From Candidatus Thorarchaeota archaeon (lineage in GTDB: Archaea; Asgardarchaeota; Thorarchaeia; Thorarchaeales; Thorarchaeaceae): a stretch of DNA of 64,000 nt. The translations under genes were made by a program, and so were the position numbers. The notes under the pieces are model-generated. The model had not been told where the DNA came from and did not search any database. It saw only the letters and a list, made by a program, of their open reading frames with translations. Shown piece after piece: positions 12,891-61,780 of the stretch; position 1 is the stretch's first letter; every line of letters begins with the position of its first letter. Where the stretch lies: the NCBI GenBank assembly GCA_019057475.1, contig DXJO01000010.1:160001-224000 (forward strand), given 5' to 3'.

Positions 12891-13034
12891 CTCGGCAACC
12901 ACCAATGAAGCGATAACGCTACCGTCTTATCTCTTGCGTGTCACGCCGTCAGACTTATGAACCAAGCTCATTGCCTCGTATCAATCAACCGATTAACTGC
13001 TAGACGCGGGCAGGGATGTCTGATGATTTCACAA

Positions 13035-13140
13035 CCGTTCATTGTAAGTTGGACAAACTTTGACAGGGAGTCTTTGTCCTCCCAAGAGCGGCACTGGGAA
13101 TATACTCCTTGAGGTCATTTTCCTGTCATTCAACCTCAAG
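13035..13140 (-). ncRNA. Putative omegaRNA-like guide scaffold inside type A mini-element
   Basis: TATA-like CTTATATG (13168-13161). 8-bp hairpin CTTGAGGT/ACCTCAAG. Outer stem GGAGT/ACTCC encloses TCCCAG-TGCCGCTC-TTGGGA, whose loop is complementary to the terminal GAACGG(T). Confidence 0.55.
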
Positions 13141-13222
13141 AAACAGTGTCATGATTTGAGCATATAAGGTCGTATTCGAAAATGTCCAATATCATCCAAG
13201 TTTTGAGCAGCTGTCTGCAACC
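13035..13222 (-). mobile_element. IS607-like non-autonomous mini-element, type A (188 bp)
   Basis: On the minus strand it starts (G)GGTTGCAGACAGCTGCTCAAAACTTGGATGATATTGGACA and ends TGTCAAAGTTTGTCCAACTTACAATGAACGG. The last 30 nt before the final G match 27889-27918 with 2 mismatches. Removing it at the CC/GG core restores ATG ATT TCA CAA CCC TTT GAG. Confidence 0.85.
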
Positions 13223-13505
13223 CTTTGAGTTTATTCAGCTAATAGTCCTAATCCTGACCGTAGTCTTTTTTCTCTTGGCAATCGAGTACCGAAAGCTCTC
13301 ATTTGCAGTGATCGCATTCGCAATTGGCAATGGTTTCCTGAGCCTTACCTTCTTCGCCCTCGGTGCCCCCTTTGTGGCTGTCTTCAACTTCAGCATGTTC
13401 TCAGGCGCCATCGCAATCCTGTTTCTTGCTGCTATGAGTCTTGAGGCGCCAGCAGAGGAGGAATGTCCGGAGGATGATGATTATTGTGAGGTGAGTACCC
13501 AATGA
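13182..13505 (+). CDS. NuoJ-like subunit, N-terminal half (split J)
   Basis: Three TM helices, FFALGAPFVAVF...GAIAILFL; first gene of the J-K-L-M-N run. Its first 13 codons come from the mini-element left end. Confidence 0.75.
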   Translation: MSNIIQVLSSCLQPFEFIQLIVLILTVVFFLLAIEYRKLSFAVIAFAIGNGFLSLTFFALGAPFVAVFNFSMFSGAIAILFLAAMSLEAPAEEECPEDDDYCEVSTQ

Positions 13506-20033: not shown

Positions 20034-20066
20034 GTGCAAGACACACCAGTTCTCCATTGATTGGGG

Positions 20067-20346
20067 GGCATGCAACAGCTGCCAAGAACTTGTACAATCC
20101 TGGACATTTTGTAGGTGTTTAAAACATACTGTTCAGGATTGAGTGGTGTGGATGTTCAATGCAGATTGCTAGGACCTCCATGCGATTTGGTCGCCGCCAG
20201 TTGGACGGAGACAGAAAACGCCTGTGGAGAGGACGTGAGACTTGTCGCAGATCCAGTAGGATCTGCAGAGCAGACCTCAATGAATCAGGAACCGAACATC
20301 AGTCAAGGACATTGCTGTCCAAGATTGTGCAAGTTTCGGGCAACGG
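20067..20346 (+). mobile_element. IS607-like non-autonomous mini-element, type B (280 bp), with tnpB 3'-end/omegaRNA remnant
   Basis: Left end (G)GGCATGCAACAGCTGCCAAGAACTTGTACAATCCTGGACA; right end TGTCCAAGATTGTGCAAGTTTCGGGCAACGG. A same-length inverted copy lies at 50387-50666. An internal frame reads DLVAASWTETENACGEDVRL...QTSMNQEPN. Confidence 0.88.
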
Positions 20347-24259: not shown

Positions 24260-25546
24260 CTAGGTCGAGTAGATAGCTAGCTTGTTGCCCTTGTCCAAAA
24301 CAAGTATCTTCACGTCTGGGTCATTTGATATCCACTCATCGACCACAGCTTGTGGATTCTCCGTCTTGTCTAGGTGAGCCGATTCTACGGTTTCTCTATC
24401 GAGCTCTGTGAACATCTGAATGCTTGAGAGGTTTTTCAGAAGCTCAGCGAACTTGTACGCCTTGTGCTCGTACAGATGATATTTCCCGCTTATCGACTCT
24501 ATCACAGTGTCAAGTGGAGCAGTCAACTTGTTGTAGAAATTCTCCATTGCACTCTCAGGTGCTACACCATCTCTGCACTCAGCAAGAAACAGAATCTCTC
24601 CTCCTTCTGACACTGCATTCTTAGTGAGTTCAAGTGCTCTCTGGGCATGATACAGGCTCTTGTCTTGGGGGTAACCTCCTGGGGACACCACAATGCGTGG
24701 TCTGGCGGTTACAGTGAAGCTTGCCGTTTCATCGAGCACCTTAATGCCATCAGATATCACTGGCTCCATGCGGCCGGCGCCAGCCCACACTACTTTGTCG
24801 CCATTCGATACGGTTGAGAGAGTGAAGATCGTAGCACCCTTGGTTATCATCTCAGCCGCTTCTCTCATGTCATCCGCGAGTGGGTTGGTTCGCCTTGCTG
24901 GGTCTGGGTGGTATGGATGCGTTCCGAAGGTCGACTTGGGGTCAAGTGCCATTGAATGATTGGCTTCGATTGATGCAAACCCGCACACTCCTGGCAAGAA
25001 GTCCTTGAGAGCATTGGAGTATCCACTGAAGTAATGGGCCTTCATATCAGCAAGAGGAACGTACACATTGTGACCGACGGCAGCGGCGTTAACAATGACT
25101 GGCGTACCTCTGCTTGTTTTCCCCAAGTCAGCCATGTCCGGTTCTTGGCAATCATGAATCTTCACTTTGTAGTTCTCAAGCCCGGCATCAGCAGACGCTC
25201 GTTTGATCATGTCCACGATTTCTAGGTTCCCGGGGTGTTCTACTTCGTGTGACCCGGTTGTGACTATGTACTGGATTCTGTGTGCATACTTCAGTTTTGG
25301 GGCAACCGAGCTGAGGAGTGCCCAATGAGGCTCGTCTCTAGTATGGTCCTCCACCAAAACGCAGACACTCCTGCCCTTGACGATATCCGTCAGAGCGGGT
25401 CCGTATGGGTTCGCAAGGACCCTGTTGAGTTCCTCTAGACTATTTTCTGCAGTCCTGGCTTTCTTCGGCGCGACTGTTCCAGCGAGGTTCTTTTCAGGAA
25501 TCTGCAAGTCAACAGTTCCTTCGCCGTAATTTAGAGTCACTTTCAT
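24260..25546 (-). CDS. LarA-family (nickel-pincer-dependent racemase/epimerase, DUF2088) protein
   Basis: LNYG start, VEDHTR, TGSH, GKTSRGTPV, HYFSGYS...K..LPGV, SPGGYPQDKSLYHAQRAL. Confidence 0.88.
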   Translation of the reverse strand: MKVTLNYGEGTVDLQIPEKNLAGTVAPKKARTAENSLEELNRVLANPYGPALTDIVKGRSVCVLVEDHTRDEPHWALLSSVAPKLKYAHRIQYIVTTGSHEVEHPGNLEIVDMIKRASADAGLENYKVKIHDCQEPDMADLGKTSRGTPVIVNAAAVGHNVYVPLADMKAHYFSGYSNALKDFLPGVCGFASIEANHSMALDPKSTFGTHPYHPDPARRTNPLADDMREAAEMITKGATIFTLSTVSNGDKVVWAGAGRMEPVISDGIKVLDETASFTVTARPRIVVSPGGYPQDKSLYHAQRALELTKNAVSEGGEILFLAECRDGVAPESAMENFYNKLTAPLDTVIESISGKYHLYEHKAYKFAELLKNLSSIQMFTELDRETVESAHLDKTENPQAVVDEWISNDPDVKILVLDKGNKLAIYST

Positions 25547-25587
25547 CCTGGTTGCCTCAACAACTGGATGGAACAGTCTTTGAAAAG

Positions 25588-27919
25588 GGTTGCCAATAGC
25601 TCCAAGAATCTTGGACAGACTTGGACACTTATTAGATAGTCGTCTGATGAAACACTTTTTGTGGAGTTTGAATTCTATTGCTGTTAGCTATTATAGCCCT
25701 AATTCTGTATGAGTTAATATTCTTCATCTAGGACCACGTTTTGAGGTAGTGGTTGATGAAGTCAGAAAAGCGGCGTCGTCCCCGCTCGTGCAAGACACCC
25801 GAGGCATCGAAACAGAAGACAATGGACGCCAACTATTATGGCTCTTCATCAACTACTTACCTTGTAGAGTCCTTTGCCCTGAACTCCTGTCAACGCGAAG
25901 TAGCACGAAAGGGAAGGGGCAGAGAACCCGACCCCGCGTACAGACGAGACAGGGATAGTTGGACACAGCAGCTAGTCAGTGTAGCAAGAAAGTGTGGGAG
26001 AAAGGTCGACGACATAGACCTAGCGACTCTCACTCTACATTTTGATAACTATGTCAAGGTTGTCAATCTCATCCTCTCACGGATATACCGGACGGATGGC
26101 CGCGCACAGACACTTGGGGAATCACTCTCGAAGTATAGAGGCAGAGCTTACACTCTGCTAAGAGAGCAGAGAGACCTTTGCTATCAACACAATGATGAAT
26201 ACAAAGAACTAGTGTATGAACGACTTCATCGAAATGCGCTTGAGCATGCCGGCAGAACACTGTTGGCTGATTGGACGCGGAGGCAACTCTTCAATGCTGC
26301 GATCAATCTGCTTCACGGGTCACATGATGATGCTCTACGACTTCTGAGAAGAAAGAATATTCCCTCGGACTTGATTCGAAGATTGCGGGACAGTTGCAAT
26401 GCAGTGAAGAAGAATGGTTCCGGATATCATTACGCTCTTAGTGTTCTAAGGCAGATTCGTCTTACTCTTGATAGTCATATTCTAGATACTCTCAGTATCA
26501 AGATCAGTTGGCGTGGAAGACAGAGGAAGAAGGTGTCTTCCTTACTTGCAAAGGGGTCTCCAGACTTTCAGTATGTCGAGAACCTTGTAGAGAACGAGCT
26601 CCGGAGCTGGGCAAAGAATGGATACTCTTTCACCGTCCCGCAACTAAGAAGCCTCAGTCTTGATTTCAGCGCAAGCACTGAGAACTCCATAGGTCAGGGA
26701 TACTGGTTCACTATTGATTCAGAGAGAGAGAATGAGATCATGCTGCACCTTAAGCTTCCTCCGGGGATAGATGGAAGAGAACACAGTGATTCCCCCTACA
26801 AGTCAAAGACCCTGACCTTCAGATTCCTTGACTGGTTGCCAAGAGCTGCGGCAAAAGATGCTGATAAGGCAAACAGAGCTGAGGAGACCGGTGACTATCA
26901 TCGAGGTGACCAGTTGAGGTTCAGAGCTGCAAAGTTCTCAGACATGCATGAACAACTCATGAACACCATTCAGTTCCAGCAGGTGGTTCATAGACTATCA
27001 AGGCTGAAACAAAGGAAGAGGAGTGATTCTACAGAGATTGCAGACCTAGAAGCAAACGCCCAGAGACTCAAGAGCTCCCGACGGAGTGCTCCTCCAAGAC
27101 TTCTCTTGAGAGGGCAGAGGGTCATCCTCCAGATTCCCTTTCTCTCGCCCAACGGTACAGTGAGCTCCAGAGTCCTAGGAGAGAGAGAATACACGACCAA
27201 GGCAGGAGCTGATAGGGGATTAAGAGTACCAGTTGCCCTCTCGGTTGAGAAAGACACCGAGTATGTAGACCTGTACATATCAGTAGAGTCCCTCATTGCG
27301 AAGAGGATGACACTGAGGAAGAATGCGTCGGTCCTACAGTCAGAGGTGGACAGGAGAAGAAACAACTGGGAGCGAAAGCGGCCCGGACAGACTTATCCCC
27401 GGTTCCTCTTCAAGAAGATGAGGCATCTGGAAGCCACATGGAAGAAGGTACGTCGTCTCGACCGCGAGATTGCTCGCATTATTGCATCAAAGACAGTGTG
27501 GTTCTGTGAAGGCCATCGGGTGAAGAAGGTGTTCTTCGAGGACCTGCGGAGCTTCCAAGCTAAAGGTGGTCTTAGGGACCTGTCGTGGTCGCTGAATACG
27601 AACCTGTGGGGAAAGATCATCGACACGGTCAGATACATGCGAGAGTCTCTTGGTCACTCACCCTATAGTGTGTGGACTGTGAACCCGCGGTACACTAGCC
27701 AGACATGCCATGTCTGTGGCGAGAGAGGTGTCAGGGTTGAGAATGAAACCTCGAAGACAAAGAAGAAGGGAGGAGAGTACTTCTATTGCGAAAAGTGTGG
27801 TTCTCATTTTCACGCTGATATAAACGCAGCAAGAAACATAATTCATGTTCAACCAAGATCCAGTGCCGTTCCTGGACGGACAGCTTGATGTCCAAGTTTG
27901 TCCAAATTACAATGAACGA
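25588..27919 (+). mobile_element. IS607-like element carrying only a large tnpB-like gene (no tnpA)
   Basis: Left end (G)GGTTGCCAATAGCTCCAAGAATCTTGGACAGACTTGGACA and right end TGTCCAAGTTTGTCCAAATTACAATGAACG(A) align with the four mini-elements. Confidence 0.85.
25756..27888 (+). CDS. tnpB: Large TnpB/Cas12f-like RNA-guided RuvC nuclease (~710 aa)
   Basis: RuvC-I GADRG, RuvC-II FFEDL, VNPRYTSQTCHVCG...FYCEKCG zinc finger, RuvC-III HADINAARNI. Confidence 0.88.
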   Translation: MKSEKRRRPRSCKTPEASKQKTMDANYYGSSSTTYLVESFALNSCQREVARKGRGREPDPAYRRDRDSWTQQLVSVARKCGRKVDDIDLATLTLHFDNYVKVVNLILSRIYRTDGRAQTLGESLSKYRGRAYTLLREQRDLCYQHNDEYKELVYERLHRNALEHAGRTLLADWTRRQLFNAAINLLHGSHDDALRLLRRKNIPSDLIRRLRDSCNAVKKNGSGYHYALSVLRQIRLTLDSHILDTLSIKISWRGRQRKKVSSLLAKGSPDFQYVENLVENELRSWAKNGYSFTVPQLRSLSLDFSASTENSIGQGYWFTIDSERENEIMLHLKLPPGIDGREHSDSPYKSKTLTFRFLDWLPRAAAKDADKANRAEETGDYHRGDQLRFRAAKFSDMHEQLMNTIQFQQVVHRLSRLKQRKRSDSTEIADLEANAQRLKSSRRSAPPRLLLRGQRVILQIPFLSPNGTVSSRVLGEREYTTKAGADRGLRVPVALSVEKDTEYVDLYISVESLIAKRMTLRKNASVLQSEVDRRRNNWERKRPGQTYPRFLFKKMRHLEATWKKVRRLDREIARIIASKTVWFCEGHRVKKVFFEDLRSFQAKGGLRDLSWSLNTNLWGKIIDTVRYMRESLGHSPYSVWTVNPRYTSQTCHVCGERGVRVENETSKTKKKGGEYFYCEKCGSHFHADINAARNIIHVQPRSSAVPGRTA

Positions 27920-27981
27920 TATCAGTTTTGGTGTATCACTTGTGCAGAATGCTTATCCGTTCTTGATGTTACAGCAGAAGC

Positions 27982-28305
27982 ATGAGTGACCGCTATAGGG
28001 ATGGCACCTTCGCAGAAGCTGGGCGATGGTGTGCAGTCGCATCCGAACTCCCTTGTTCAGTCATAATCATGGTATTTATTGGACATCTTCTAGGTCAGAC
28101 CTGGTGGGGACTGCAGGGTGCAATGACCGGTGCTATGATTGGAGCGATTGTTGGCTTACTACTGGGCATGTACAGTGTCTACATCACGATTCAATACTAC
28201 GACAAGCTGGAAAAAGAGCGTCCAGTCATGCGGCCTTATCAGCCTCCACAGGAGGAGATTTACGAGGACGTTGAATTTCCCGACTACGAGAAACGTACTG
28301 AGTAG
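27982..28305 (+). CDS. Small 2-TM protein, AtpZ/AtpI-like
   Basis: ASEL...IGHLLG...IGAIVGLLLGMYSVY pattern; close to ATPase genes. Confidence 0.5.
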   Translation: MSDRYRDGTFAEAGRWCAVASELPCSVIIMVFIGHLLGQTWWGLQGAMTGAMIGAIVGLLLGMYSVYITIQYYDKLEKERPVMRPYQPPQEEIYEDVEFPDYEKRTE

Positions 28306-50285: not shown

Positions 50286-50386
50286 CCTTCTCACAGTCCG
50301 CTCGAATACAGTAATAGAAAAAAAGGCTACCGACTATGACTTATGCAGTGAATATGTAACTACTTATTCGAGGTTGACCACGAATG

Positions 50387-50666
50387 CCGTTGCCAGAAAC
50401 TTGTACAATCCTGGACATCAATGTCCTTGACTGATGTTCGGTTCCTGATTCATTGAGGTCTGCTCTGCAGATCCTGCTGAATCTGCGACAAGTCTCACGT
50501 CCTCTCCACAGGCGTTTTCTGTCTCCATCCAACTGGCGGCGACCAAACTACATGGAGGCCCTAGCAATCAGCATTGAACATCCACACCACTCAATCCTGA
50601 ACAGTATGTTATAACCCCTTACAAAATGTTTAAGATTGTACAAGTTCTTAGCAGCTGTTGTATGCC
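50387..50666 (-). mobile_element. IS607-like mini-element type B (280 bp), second copy
   Basis: Reverse-complement copy of 20067-20346, bounded by CC/GG at both ends. Removal restores GAGGT-N9-ATG CCC TTC TTT AAG. Confidence 0.9.
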
Positions 50667-51456
50667 CTTCTTTAAGCACAATGGACTCAAACTCCACTAT
50701 GTTGATGAAGCACCCACAGAGCCTGCAGCGGCGAGACCAGCGCTTCTCTTTATCCATGGCGCTGGCGCTTCGCATATGCTTTGGACTCCTCAGGTCAAGC
50801 ATTTCAAACAGACCCACCGAGTCATCGCATTAAATCTATCAGGTCACGCGGAGTCAGAAGCCAAAGAGGAAGATCCCGAAATCGAAACTCAATTTGCTCC
50901 CGAGCTTGCATCGCTGATTCAACATCTATCTCTTGACATCTTTGTTCTGATTGGACATTCCATGGGCGGGGGCGTAGCCATGTCGTACGTCCTGCAAGAT
51001 GGAGTCCGCATGCCTCGAGCACTAGTTTTGGTGAGCACCTCTTCTGACCTTGACATGAGAAAGCGTGGCCCTGGCGTTGCAAAGGAAGCTATCGAGATTA
51101 ACCTGTTCCTTCTTCAGAGTGCGCTCAAGCGGGACAAATCAATTGAATATGAGCTAAAACGTGCGGGGGCCAAGGTGAGCCTGACCAACCCTTGGATAAT
51201 GCAGAGAGACCTTCGTGCCTGTGACCATTTCAACATCTCCGACAGAGTAGGGGAAATCACAATTCCTGCATTTGTAATCGTTGGCGAACACGATGACCTC
51301 ATCCCGCCCTCGATAGCCAAGCAGCTAGAGGAAGCCCTTCCGCGGGCTGATATCGCTGTCGTCAGAGGTGCAAATCATTCACCCATGATTGAACAACCTG
51401 AGGAGTTCAACGGGCTCCTTTCCAAGTTCCTGAAGTGGGTGGAGTCGAATCCATAG
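50662..51456 (+). CDS. Alpha/beta-fold hydrolase
   Basis: FIHGAG, GHSMGG nucleophile elbow, GEHD, NH. The ATG lies inside the mini-element left end. Confidence 0.92.
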   Translation: MPFFKHNGLKLHYVDEAPTEPAAARPALLFIHGAGASHMLWTPQVKHFKQTHRVIALNLSGHAESEAKEEDPEIETQFAPELASLIQHLSLDIFVLIGHSMGGGVAMSYVLQDGVRMPRALVLVSTSSDLDMRKRGPGVAKEAIEINLFLLQSALKRDKSIEYELKRAGAKVSLTNPWIMQRDLRACDHFNISDRVGEITIPAFVIVGEHDDLIPPSIAKQLEEALPRADIAVVRGANHSPMIEQPEEFNGLLSKFLKWVESNP

Positions 51457-61558: not shown

Positions 61559-61591
61559 GTCCTAGCATAAAGTGGCTCTGAGCTATTAAGG

Positions 61592-61780
61592 GGTTGCAAA
61601 CAGCTGCTGTAAAGTTGGACATATCTGGACAATTCCATTGTGGGCTTTATATAGACCAATACGACATTGATCTCTGAGGAATATGACACACCTGTGAAGG
61701 TTCCTCACGGAGTAGTCCAGTGCCGTTTTCTGGACGTACTAGACTTCGGTGTCCAACTTCGTACAACTTACAATGAACGG
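61592..61780 (+). mobile_element. IS607-like mini-element type A (189 bp), second copy
   Basis: Left end (G)GGTTGCAAACAGCTGCTGTAAAGTTGGACATATCTGGACA; right end TGTCCAACTTCGTACAACTTACAATGAACGG; same internal layout as 13035-13222. Confidence 0.85.
61675..61780 (+). ncRNA. Putative omegaRNA-like guide scaffold
   Basis: TTTATATA at 61646. Hairpin TGAGGAA/TTCCTCA. GTCCAG-TGCCGTTTT-CTGGAC lies inside CGGAGT/ACTTCG, and the loop is complementary to the terminal AACGG(T). Confidence 0.55.

Follow-up and report, generated by a model that had tools for sequence, protein, structure and literature searches.

What is a gene for a TnpB-like nuclease of 710 aa doing in an archaeal genome with neither a tnpA gene nor a CRISPR array beside it? 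The gene lies in a 64,000-nucleotide stretch of contig DXJO01000010.1 of a Candidatus Thorarchaeota archaeon (the window), for which a preliminary description, made from the letters alone, had proposed an expanded IS607-associated TnpB with a compact RNA. With a probability that we put at roughly 70%, the protein acts as the RNA-guided homing nuclease of an IS607-family element from Thorarchaeota, an element in which a giant partner gene, aCas1, is usually present as well, and the window copy is a deletion derivative of such an element.

The TnpB reading frame (Table 1) could be lengthened by one codon from an upstream TTG at 25753. Its catalytic motifs are GADRG (D486), FFEDL (E595), and HADINAA (D688), its zinc-finger cysteines are residues 651, 654, 678, and 681 (C4), and all seven of these residues are invariant in 106 of 106 homologs, so that the oversized protein with an intact triad is confirmed; the stretch before RuvC-I, estimated earlier at ~480 aa, counts 485 aa. 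In Pfam the protein matches Cas12f1-like_TNB (E 1e-15), while the NCBIfam Cas12f2 and TnpB models match the C-terminal third only and below cut-off (score 62.7 against 450 for Cas12f2). We collected 266 homologs, most of them 690-730 aa long and the named ones nearly all from Thorarchaeota, which specifies the Asgard origin that had been suspected. The family is present in 31 of the 59 genomes of the host's Thorarchaeota family and in none of the 191 other Asgard genomes searched. In a profile search of 1.8 billion proteins, relatives outside the family were matched by the RuvC/zinc-finger part only (E 1e-17 or weaker), and one of them adjoins an IS607 tnpA.

The gene sits in an IS607-type element of 2.3 kb whose internal part is gone. 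Judged against empty sites in five congeners, in which the flanks are joined and the element is absent, this element extends from 25590 to 27917. The junctions consist of a target G and a crossover dinucleotide, which is GG at the left end (25588-89) and GA at the right end (27918-19), with no target duplication; among the right ends of 142 family loci, 112 have GG and 24 have GA. Both transposon ends (25588-25627 and 27889-27919), which the preliminary description lacked, contain two 7-bp boxes 10 bp apart. These are the features of the IS607 family, in which a MerR-serine recombinase TnpA, GG termini, no duplication, a G-rich target, a right-end RNA, and a flank-derived guide have been described (PMC13565253). 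The empty sites, the GG/GA junction without duplication, and the position of tnpA directly behind the left end in full elements support IS607-type mobility, and with it the IS607 association first proposed. A 17-bp inverted match was considered as terminal inverted repeats of a DDE element and rejected; it consists of the sub-terminal boxes, 21 and 12 bp inside the ends, and there is no duplication.

No tnpA is found in the 64-kb window, and the only resolvases of the genome are on contigs C53 and C19. The absence of tnpA holds for the window copy because it is an internal-deletion derivative (junction at about 25655-25658), but not for the family, in which a MerR-HTH serine recombinase gene stands beside the left end at 17 of the 58 loci with at least 5.5 kb of upstream sequence (long loci, not dereplicated). 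At G006:C44 and G004:C158, the matching left end is followed by aCas1. A metagenomic relative, L121, occupies the same insertion site with its internal part kept and its right flank not inverted; therefore the window copy lost the part between left end and promoter later, and an inversion of ~36 bp replaced its guide. Judging from the sequence, the window's TnpB gene is an intact nuclease gene on a decaying non-autonomous element.

Table 1. Features of the window copy (positions within the window; residue numbers for protein domains).
Feature	Position	Strand	Basis or remarks
Target flank (purine-rich, then G) and GG crossover dinucleotide (25588-25589)	25584..25589	+	Empty sites in five congeners; left-junction logo, 46 ends
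IS607-type left end	25590..25657	+	Two 7-bp TnpA boxes 10 bp apart (25611-25627); matches left ends of G006:C44 and G004:C158
tnpB promoter TATA region, putative self-guide target	25681..25698	+	In most full elements the promoter is divergent from aCas1; window copy mismatched to the self-guide at 4 positions
TnpB ORF, 710 aa	25756-27888	+	Translation, motifs, AlphaFold model
Predicted second guide-RNA scaffold within codons 5-25	25769..25843	+	Stem 25769-25786, end 25829, guide 25830-25843
Right end and predicted omega-RNA scaffold, 61 nt	27859..27919	+	5-bp stem, loop pairs with 3' end (pseudoknot), second hairpin with TnpA boxes
Flank-derived guide region	27920..27955	+	Host segment of ~36 bp inverted relative to empty site
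TnpB domains	Disordered 1-87; REC 89-290; WED helical hairpin 361-441; RuvC-I D486; helices 511-586; RuvC-II E595; C4 zinc finger; RuvC-III D688		AlphaFold model

The insertion lies between two host genes, a divergent LarA-family nickel racemase gene (24260-25546) and a gene for a small membrane protein upstream of A-type ATPase genes (27982-28305). The genome contains four further copies or fragments of the TnpB family, and one locus on contig C53 (L003, G000 C53:670-9290) is a full 8.6-kb element with a left end, an apparently frameshifted tnpA (177 aa), a 1,822-aa aCas1, a 763-aa TnpB, and a right end. The genome also has mini-elements of 190-280 bp, at least 23 of them, whose ends are related to those of the TnpB elements. 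Four mini-elements with IS607-type ends lie in the window, at 13030-13225 (-), 20065-20345 (+), 50386-50668 (-), and 61590-61779 (+). A guide scaffold is retained in the ~190-bp class (22 of the genome's 59 right ends), and the ~280-bp class differs in its right-end sequence.

The right end also encodes a predicted guide RNA. In the family this unit measures 46-70 nt and consists of a 5-bp stem, a loop pairing with the last six bases, and a variable hairpin that includes the TnpA boxes; in the window it overlaps the last TnpB codons, and the GA junction breaks the last pseudoknot pair. Across 60 sequences, 96.9% of the cells are paired and 10 of 15 pairs show two-sided compensatory changes, a level reached in 0 of 500 shuffles, and slid controls gave 28-54%. 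The pattern occurs in 57 of 86 family genomes, and an Rfam search with the scaffold gave no match. This covariation, together with the sharp boundary to a variable guide, is as expected of a TnpB/OMEGA RNA and supports the compact RNA of the preliminary description, still as a predicted molecule. Typical TnpB RNAs exceed 100 nt, and the Thorarchaeota scaffold is far shorter. A longer omega-RNA reaching into the coding region was considered and dropped; conservation at synonymous sites stays level (0.40-0.52) until the last codons ahead of the stem, and mini-elements have only the last 60 nt in common. Because the host segment behind the right end is inverted, the guide of the window copy no longer matches the empty donor site. 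Compared with IS607-family TnpBs that use an omega-RNA (ISFba1, 8iaz; IS607 IStrons), the TnpA type, GG ends, lack of duplication, G-rich target, and right-end RNA are alike, whereas the Thorarchaeota protein is about 300 aa longer, its scaffold is only 46-70 nt, and its elements reach 8-9 kb with aCas1 (some with RadA) and carry a second guide inside the mRNA.

That second guide belongs to a predicted scaffold within codons 5-25 of tnpB, whose stem and pseudoknot, the same as at the right end, recur in 90 of 103 homologs, against an expectation of 8.4 when the ends are shuffled. The guide fits the TATA region of its own gene in 88 of 103 homologs, with no more than one mismatch across guide positions 2-12; the match fades past position 12-15, and control regions never matched as well. 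The window copy has 4 mismatches in 14, and both of its guides have decayed. Because short guides usually allow binding without cutting, TnpB likely represses itself through this ~12-nt guide in its own mRNA. TldR repressors are similar in that a short guide directs an RNA-guided protein to a promoter; here the guide lies within the reading frame of the nuclease itself, which keeps its catalytic residues. The self-guide targets read YTGN and the insertion sites RGGG, so that only a G at -2 is common to both; the TAM is uncertain and may be relaxed.

Is the additional length of the protein a step towards Cas12 or Fanzors? In the AlphaFold model (pLDDT 75.6, with residues 1-87 of low confidence), the surplus is made up of an enlarged helical REC domain (89-290), a helical hairpin in WED (361-441), and long helices after RuvC-I, in line with the growth by REC/WED insertions that had been suggested. 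The structural comparison proposed there was carried out, and residues 86-707 fit Cas12f, TnpB, and Fanzor2 structures as one continuous fold with the REC-WED-RuvC-zinc-finger architecture and D-E-D triad of TnpB/OMEGA nucleases. A chance fusion of the N-terminal half, absent from homologs, had been named as a possible objection; it is ruled out by the full-length conservation in homologs and by this continuous fold. The reading of TnpB as a Cas12 or Fanzor intermediate, or as a domesticated host gene, could appeal to the Cas12-like gain in size with a crRNA-sized pseudoknot scaffold, to AsCas12f as the top fold match (Z 17.2, rmsd 4.1, 269 aligned), and to the Cas1 domain in the partner protein. 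However, no CRISPR array or tandem scaffold was found at any family locus, no tandem array within 15-40 kb of the window's TnpB gene, as had already been remarked, and no repeated scaffold 3' of it; the family is confined to the Thorarchaeota-family genomes counted above, and domestication fits poorly with a site that is empty in five congeners. In Fanzors the RuvC-II glutamate stands six residues before the zinc finger (PMC13565253), and because E595 stands 56 residues before C651, the canonical RuvC-II position, the 710-aa TnpB is not Fanzor-like. The Fanzor part of this reading is largely refuted on sequence grounds, and the reading as a whole is very improbable. What stands of the suggested TnpB-to-Cas12 transition is a parallel, not a step towards Cas12, given the lack of arrays and the restriction to one Asgard family. 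The fold is common to Cas12f, the Cas12k of CASTs, and Fanzor2, and CASTs also have tRNA-directed partial guides, but the Thorarchaeota family has no CRISPR array and no Tn7 genes, and its active-site residues are intact.

The full 8-9-kb elements contain an ORF of 1,400-1,950 aa head to head with tnpB, and a MerR-resolvase tnpA can follow the left end; the giant gene is present at 42 of the 58 long loci and both genes at 12. Sequence searches with the giant protein gave no Pfam, PDB-sequence, or convincing Atlas match, and it was identified by folding only. In a model of its first 930 aa (pLDDT 89), residues 1-240 correspond to the Cas1 catalytic domain (Z 12.8 to A. fulgidus Cas1, rmsd 3.8, 198 aligned; Z 11.6 to casposase), with conserved residues of the Cas1 catalytic type (E74, H170, D177, and D180), and residues 589-870 adopt a RecA/KaiC fold (Z 11.6). 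Between the two parts lie invariant PD-(D/E)XK and Q-x-x-x-Y motifs, which we take to be of the RecB/Cas4 type. As modeled, the partner is aCas1, with a Cas1 domain, a Cas4-like nuclease, and a RecA-like fold. In the lineage closest to the window copy, aCas1 is in tandem with a RadA-like gene. At L011, L034, L043, L052, and L114, aCas1 (~1,430 aa) is followed or preceded in tandem by a RadA/Rad51-like gene and an ORF of 220-265 aa that belongs to no known family. TnpB and aCas1 distances correlate (Mantel rho 0.57, 0 of 2000 permutations), and swaps are visible. L092 and L147/L148 have the same tRNA-Lys site, close aCas1 proteins, and a common upstream HTH gene with TnpBs of different clades, indicating a module swap.

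The pairing of TnpB with aCas1 was flagged computationally in two Asgard groups (Cas1H-Asgard-1 and -2), flanked by repeats, and aCas1 was proposed as their transposase (Altae-Tran 2023, PMC10691335). Because this pairing was already flagged, the objection that the protein may fall inside a characterised clade proved partly right. A giant linked protein with a Cas1 catalytic domain stands beside TnpB in both the published groups and our family, although it is deleted from the window copy. The published groups have a conserved T opening the variable region, and our family resembles them in this, with T or C at the first guide position in 142 of 142 loci; the published GTTCACTCA motif follows a second, ~450-aa-core TnpB type in this genome, not the 710-aa type. 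Makarova 2020 is said to be a further source on the aCas1-associated TnpB of Asgard archaea. The second aCas1-linked type (~450-aa core and tail; L089 7192-8934, L090 7485-9281, and L091 8448-10124, on G000 C9, C18, and C42) has a rearranged RuvC-II, in which the glutamate has moved close to the zinc finger, on its N-terminal side, as in Fanzors (for L089, whose sequence was read), and is followed by a GTTCACTCA-like motif.

Whether aCas1 is itself the transposase of a casposon-like element, with tnpA incidental, is a fair question, since this was proposed for the Cas1H-Asgard groups (PMC10691335), its catalytic-type residues are conserved, it is commoner than tnpA (42 versus 17 long loci), and the closest lineage (92% identical) has moved without tnpA in cis. 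Against it stand the IS607-type ends and junctions, with boxes spaced by 10 bp and a tnpA that abuts the left end at some loci; aCas1 also accompanies an unrelated TnpB type, and a box search of its three loci found no IS607 ends. Casposons are marked by a family B polymerase, long terminal inverted repeats, and the 14-15-bp target duplications that casposases make, whereas the empty site here shows a GG/GA crossover without duplication, and no polymerase-sized extra ORF lies between left end and TnpB. A transposase role is unlikely in our judgment. Identity with aloposons, which have tandem 3,000-6,000-aa genes and a ParA cassette (PMC8813620), was ruled out; the partner is a single 1,400-1,950-aa protein. 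We lean weakly towards aCas1 as a helper of recombination at the break, ahead of a transposase or a writer of guides, while holding even this role to be doubtful.

What homing by such a nuclease may lead to is seen in relatives beside tRNA genes. Fifteen loci, including this genome's paralogue on C54, lie 42-180 bp from tRNA-Lys(CTT). A tnpA was detected at none of them, most have shortened right ends, and the guides copy the tRNA 5' end following its GGG. These elements belong to three separate TnpB clades. The 12 distinct guide/allele pairs have 3-6 mismatches to the linked allele (positions 2-14) and 0-2 to the best other allele; the mean mismatch to the linked allele is 3.92 versus 3.09 when permuted (p = 0.0005, which overstates the case because the pairs are not independent of each other). 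Among the 11 pairs that were checked, no guide differs at invariant tRNA positions, and the acceptor stems are all fully compensated. At tRNA nt 4-15, Lys(CTT) has a diversity of 1.88, about 7-10 times that of the control tRNAs Arg(CCT), with 0.26, and Val(CAC), with 0.19. Comparable cases were found at tRNA-Arg(TCG), at tRNA-His (at its 3' end, and also in its anticodon arm, with an intron splitting one linked allele there), and at tRNA-Ser and tRNA-Ile, with weaker self-avoidance in the last two; the guides linked to Ser (L197) and to a 3'-broken Ile (L326) have 1 mismatch to the neighbour tRNA in the first 13-14 nt. At L044 and L181, a tRNA-Leu-like 3' sequence directly after the right end suggests that the element inserted into a tRNA gene, which may be how tRNA-directed guides arose. 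Two decayed remnants also lie beside tRNA-Lys(CTT), a bare right end with a guide that has 2 mismatches to its own allele (L200) and a TnpB pseudogene fragment (L204), and at L067 and L124 a degenerate guide repeat lies 100-270 bp downstream in non-tRNA DNA.

Elements of three clades at 42-180 bp from a tRNA 3' end recall type V-K and I-F CASTs, which home beside tRNA genes using partial guides (PMC11656645), and TnpB with a mismatched guide might likewise bind the tRNA gene uncut and recruit aCas1 to integrate nearby. This is very unlikely, however, with a RuvC that is intact in 106 of 106 homologs, guides that fit their own allele less well than expected by chance and are mismatched near the seed, and widely varying distances between element and target; moreover, targeted binding would not drive tRNA recoding. 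The closest known behaviour, by analogy, is free-standing homing with marker exclusion by the T4 endonucleases SegB and SegG (PMC2988022). In both cases a nuclease gene lies beside its target, its own allele is spared, and spread would be by co-conversion, with cutting presumed for the Thorarchaeota elements; SegB also acts in a tRNA region. The Thorarchaeota case differs in being RNA-guided, chromosomal, and archaeal, and in a target within an essential tRNA gene that is recoded with compensatory changes.

The homing-element reading that we prefer would then work as follows. TnpA, a serine recombinase supplied in cis or in trans, would move the element into G-GG-Y sites without duplication. 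The enlarged TnpB would bind the 46-70-nt right-end pseudoknot RNA with about 14-17 nt of flank and, by comparison with IS607 and IS605 TnpB, cut empty alleles, whereupon gene conversion would restore or spread the element, with aCas1 perhaps aiding recombination at the break. With the ~12-nt guide encoded in its mRNA, TnpB would probably bind the TATA box uncut and thereby restrain the expression of its gene. In several lineages, the element has come to lie next to a tRNA gene, with a guide directed at other alleles of that tRNA and an allele of its own that is recoded with compensated stems or an intron, a pattern that points to free-standing homing with co-conversion. Some observations sit uneasily with this reading: aCas1 is kept more often than tnpA, the closest lineage occupies at least three sites with no tnpA in cis, the genome's only tnpA appears truncated, the targets of the self-guide follow YTGN rather than GGG, and the tRNA-Ser and tRNA-Ile guides differ from their neighbours at a single nucleotide. 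We more tentatively entertain, at somewhat less than even odds, a natural drive that cuts the rival allele and keeps the gene working, in which a self-repressing large TnpB with a crRNA-sized scaffold is repeatedly retargeted to essential tRNA genes, measurably speeds their evolution, and has a Cas1-Cas4-RecA-like partner that writes guides or recombines.

While the aCas1-TnpB pairing itself is known from the Cas1H-Asgard groups, the literature searched gave no description of the predicted 46-70-nt pseudoknot scaffold with strong covariation, of the putative coding-sequence scaffold with a ~12-nt guide to its own TATA region, of tRNA-Lys(CTT)-linked relatives whose guides appear to avoid their own recoded allele and match others, or of TnpB homing with tRNA allele avoidance. 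The aCas1-TnpB elements gain a testable anatomy, with exact ends, a candidate TAM, two guide scaffolds, and a three-domain partner, and their IS607-type ends and junctions challenge the published view of aCas1 as a transposase. The combination of a 46-61-nt scaffold with a 710-aa protein exemplifies independently the trend towards Cas12 in which the protein grows and the RNA shrinks, and it makes this TnpB a practical candidate for single-RNA editing. Sequence change in a core translation gene of Thorarchaeota may, as the tRNA-linked members suggest, be driven by a selfish RNA-guided nuclease.
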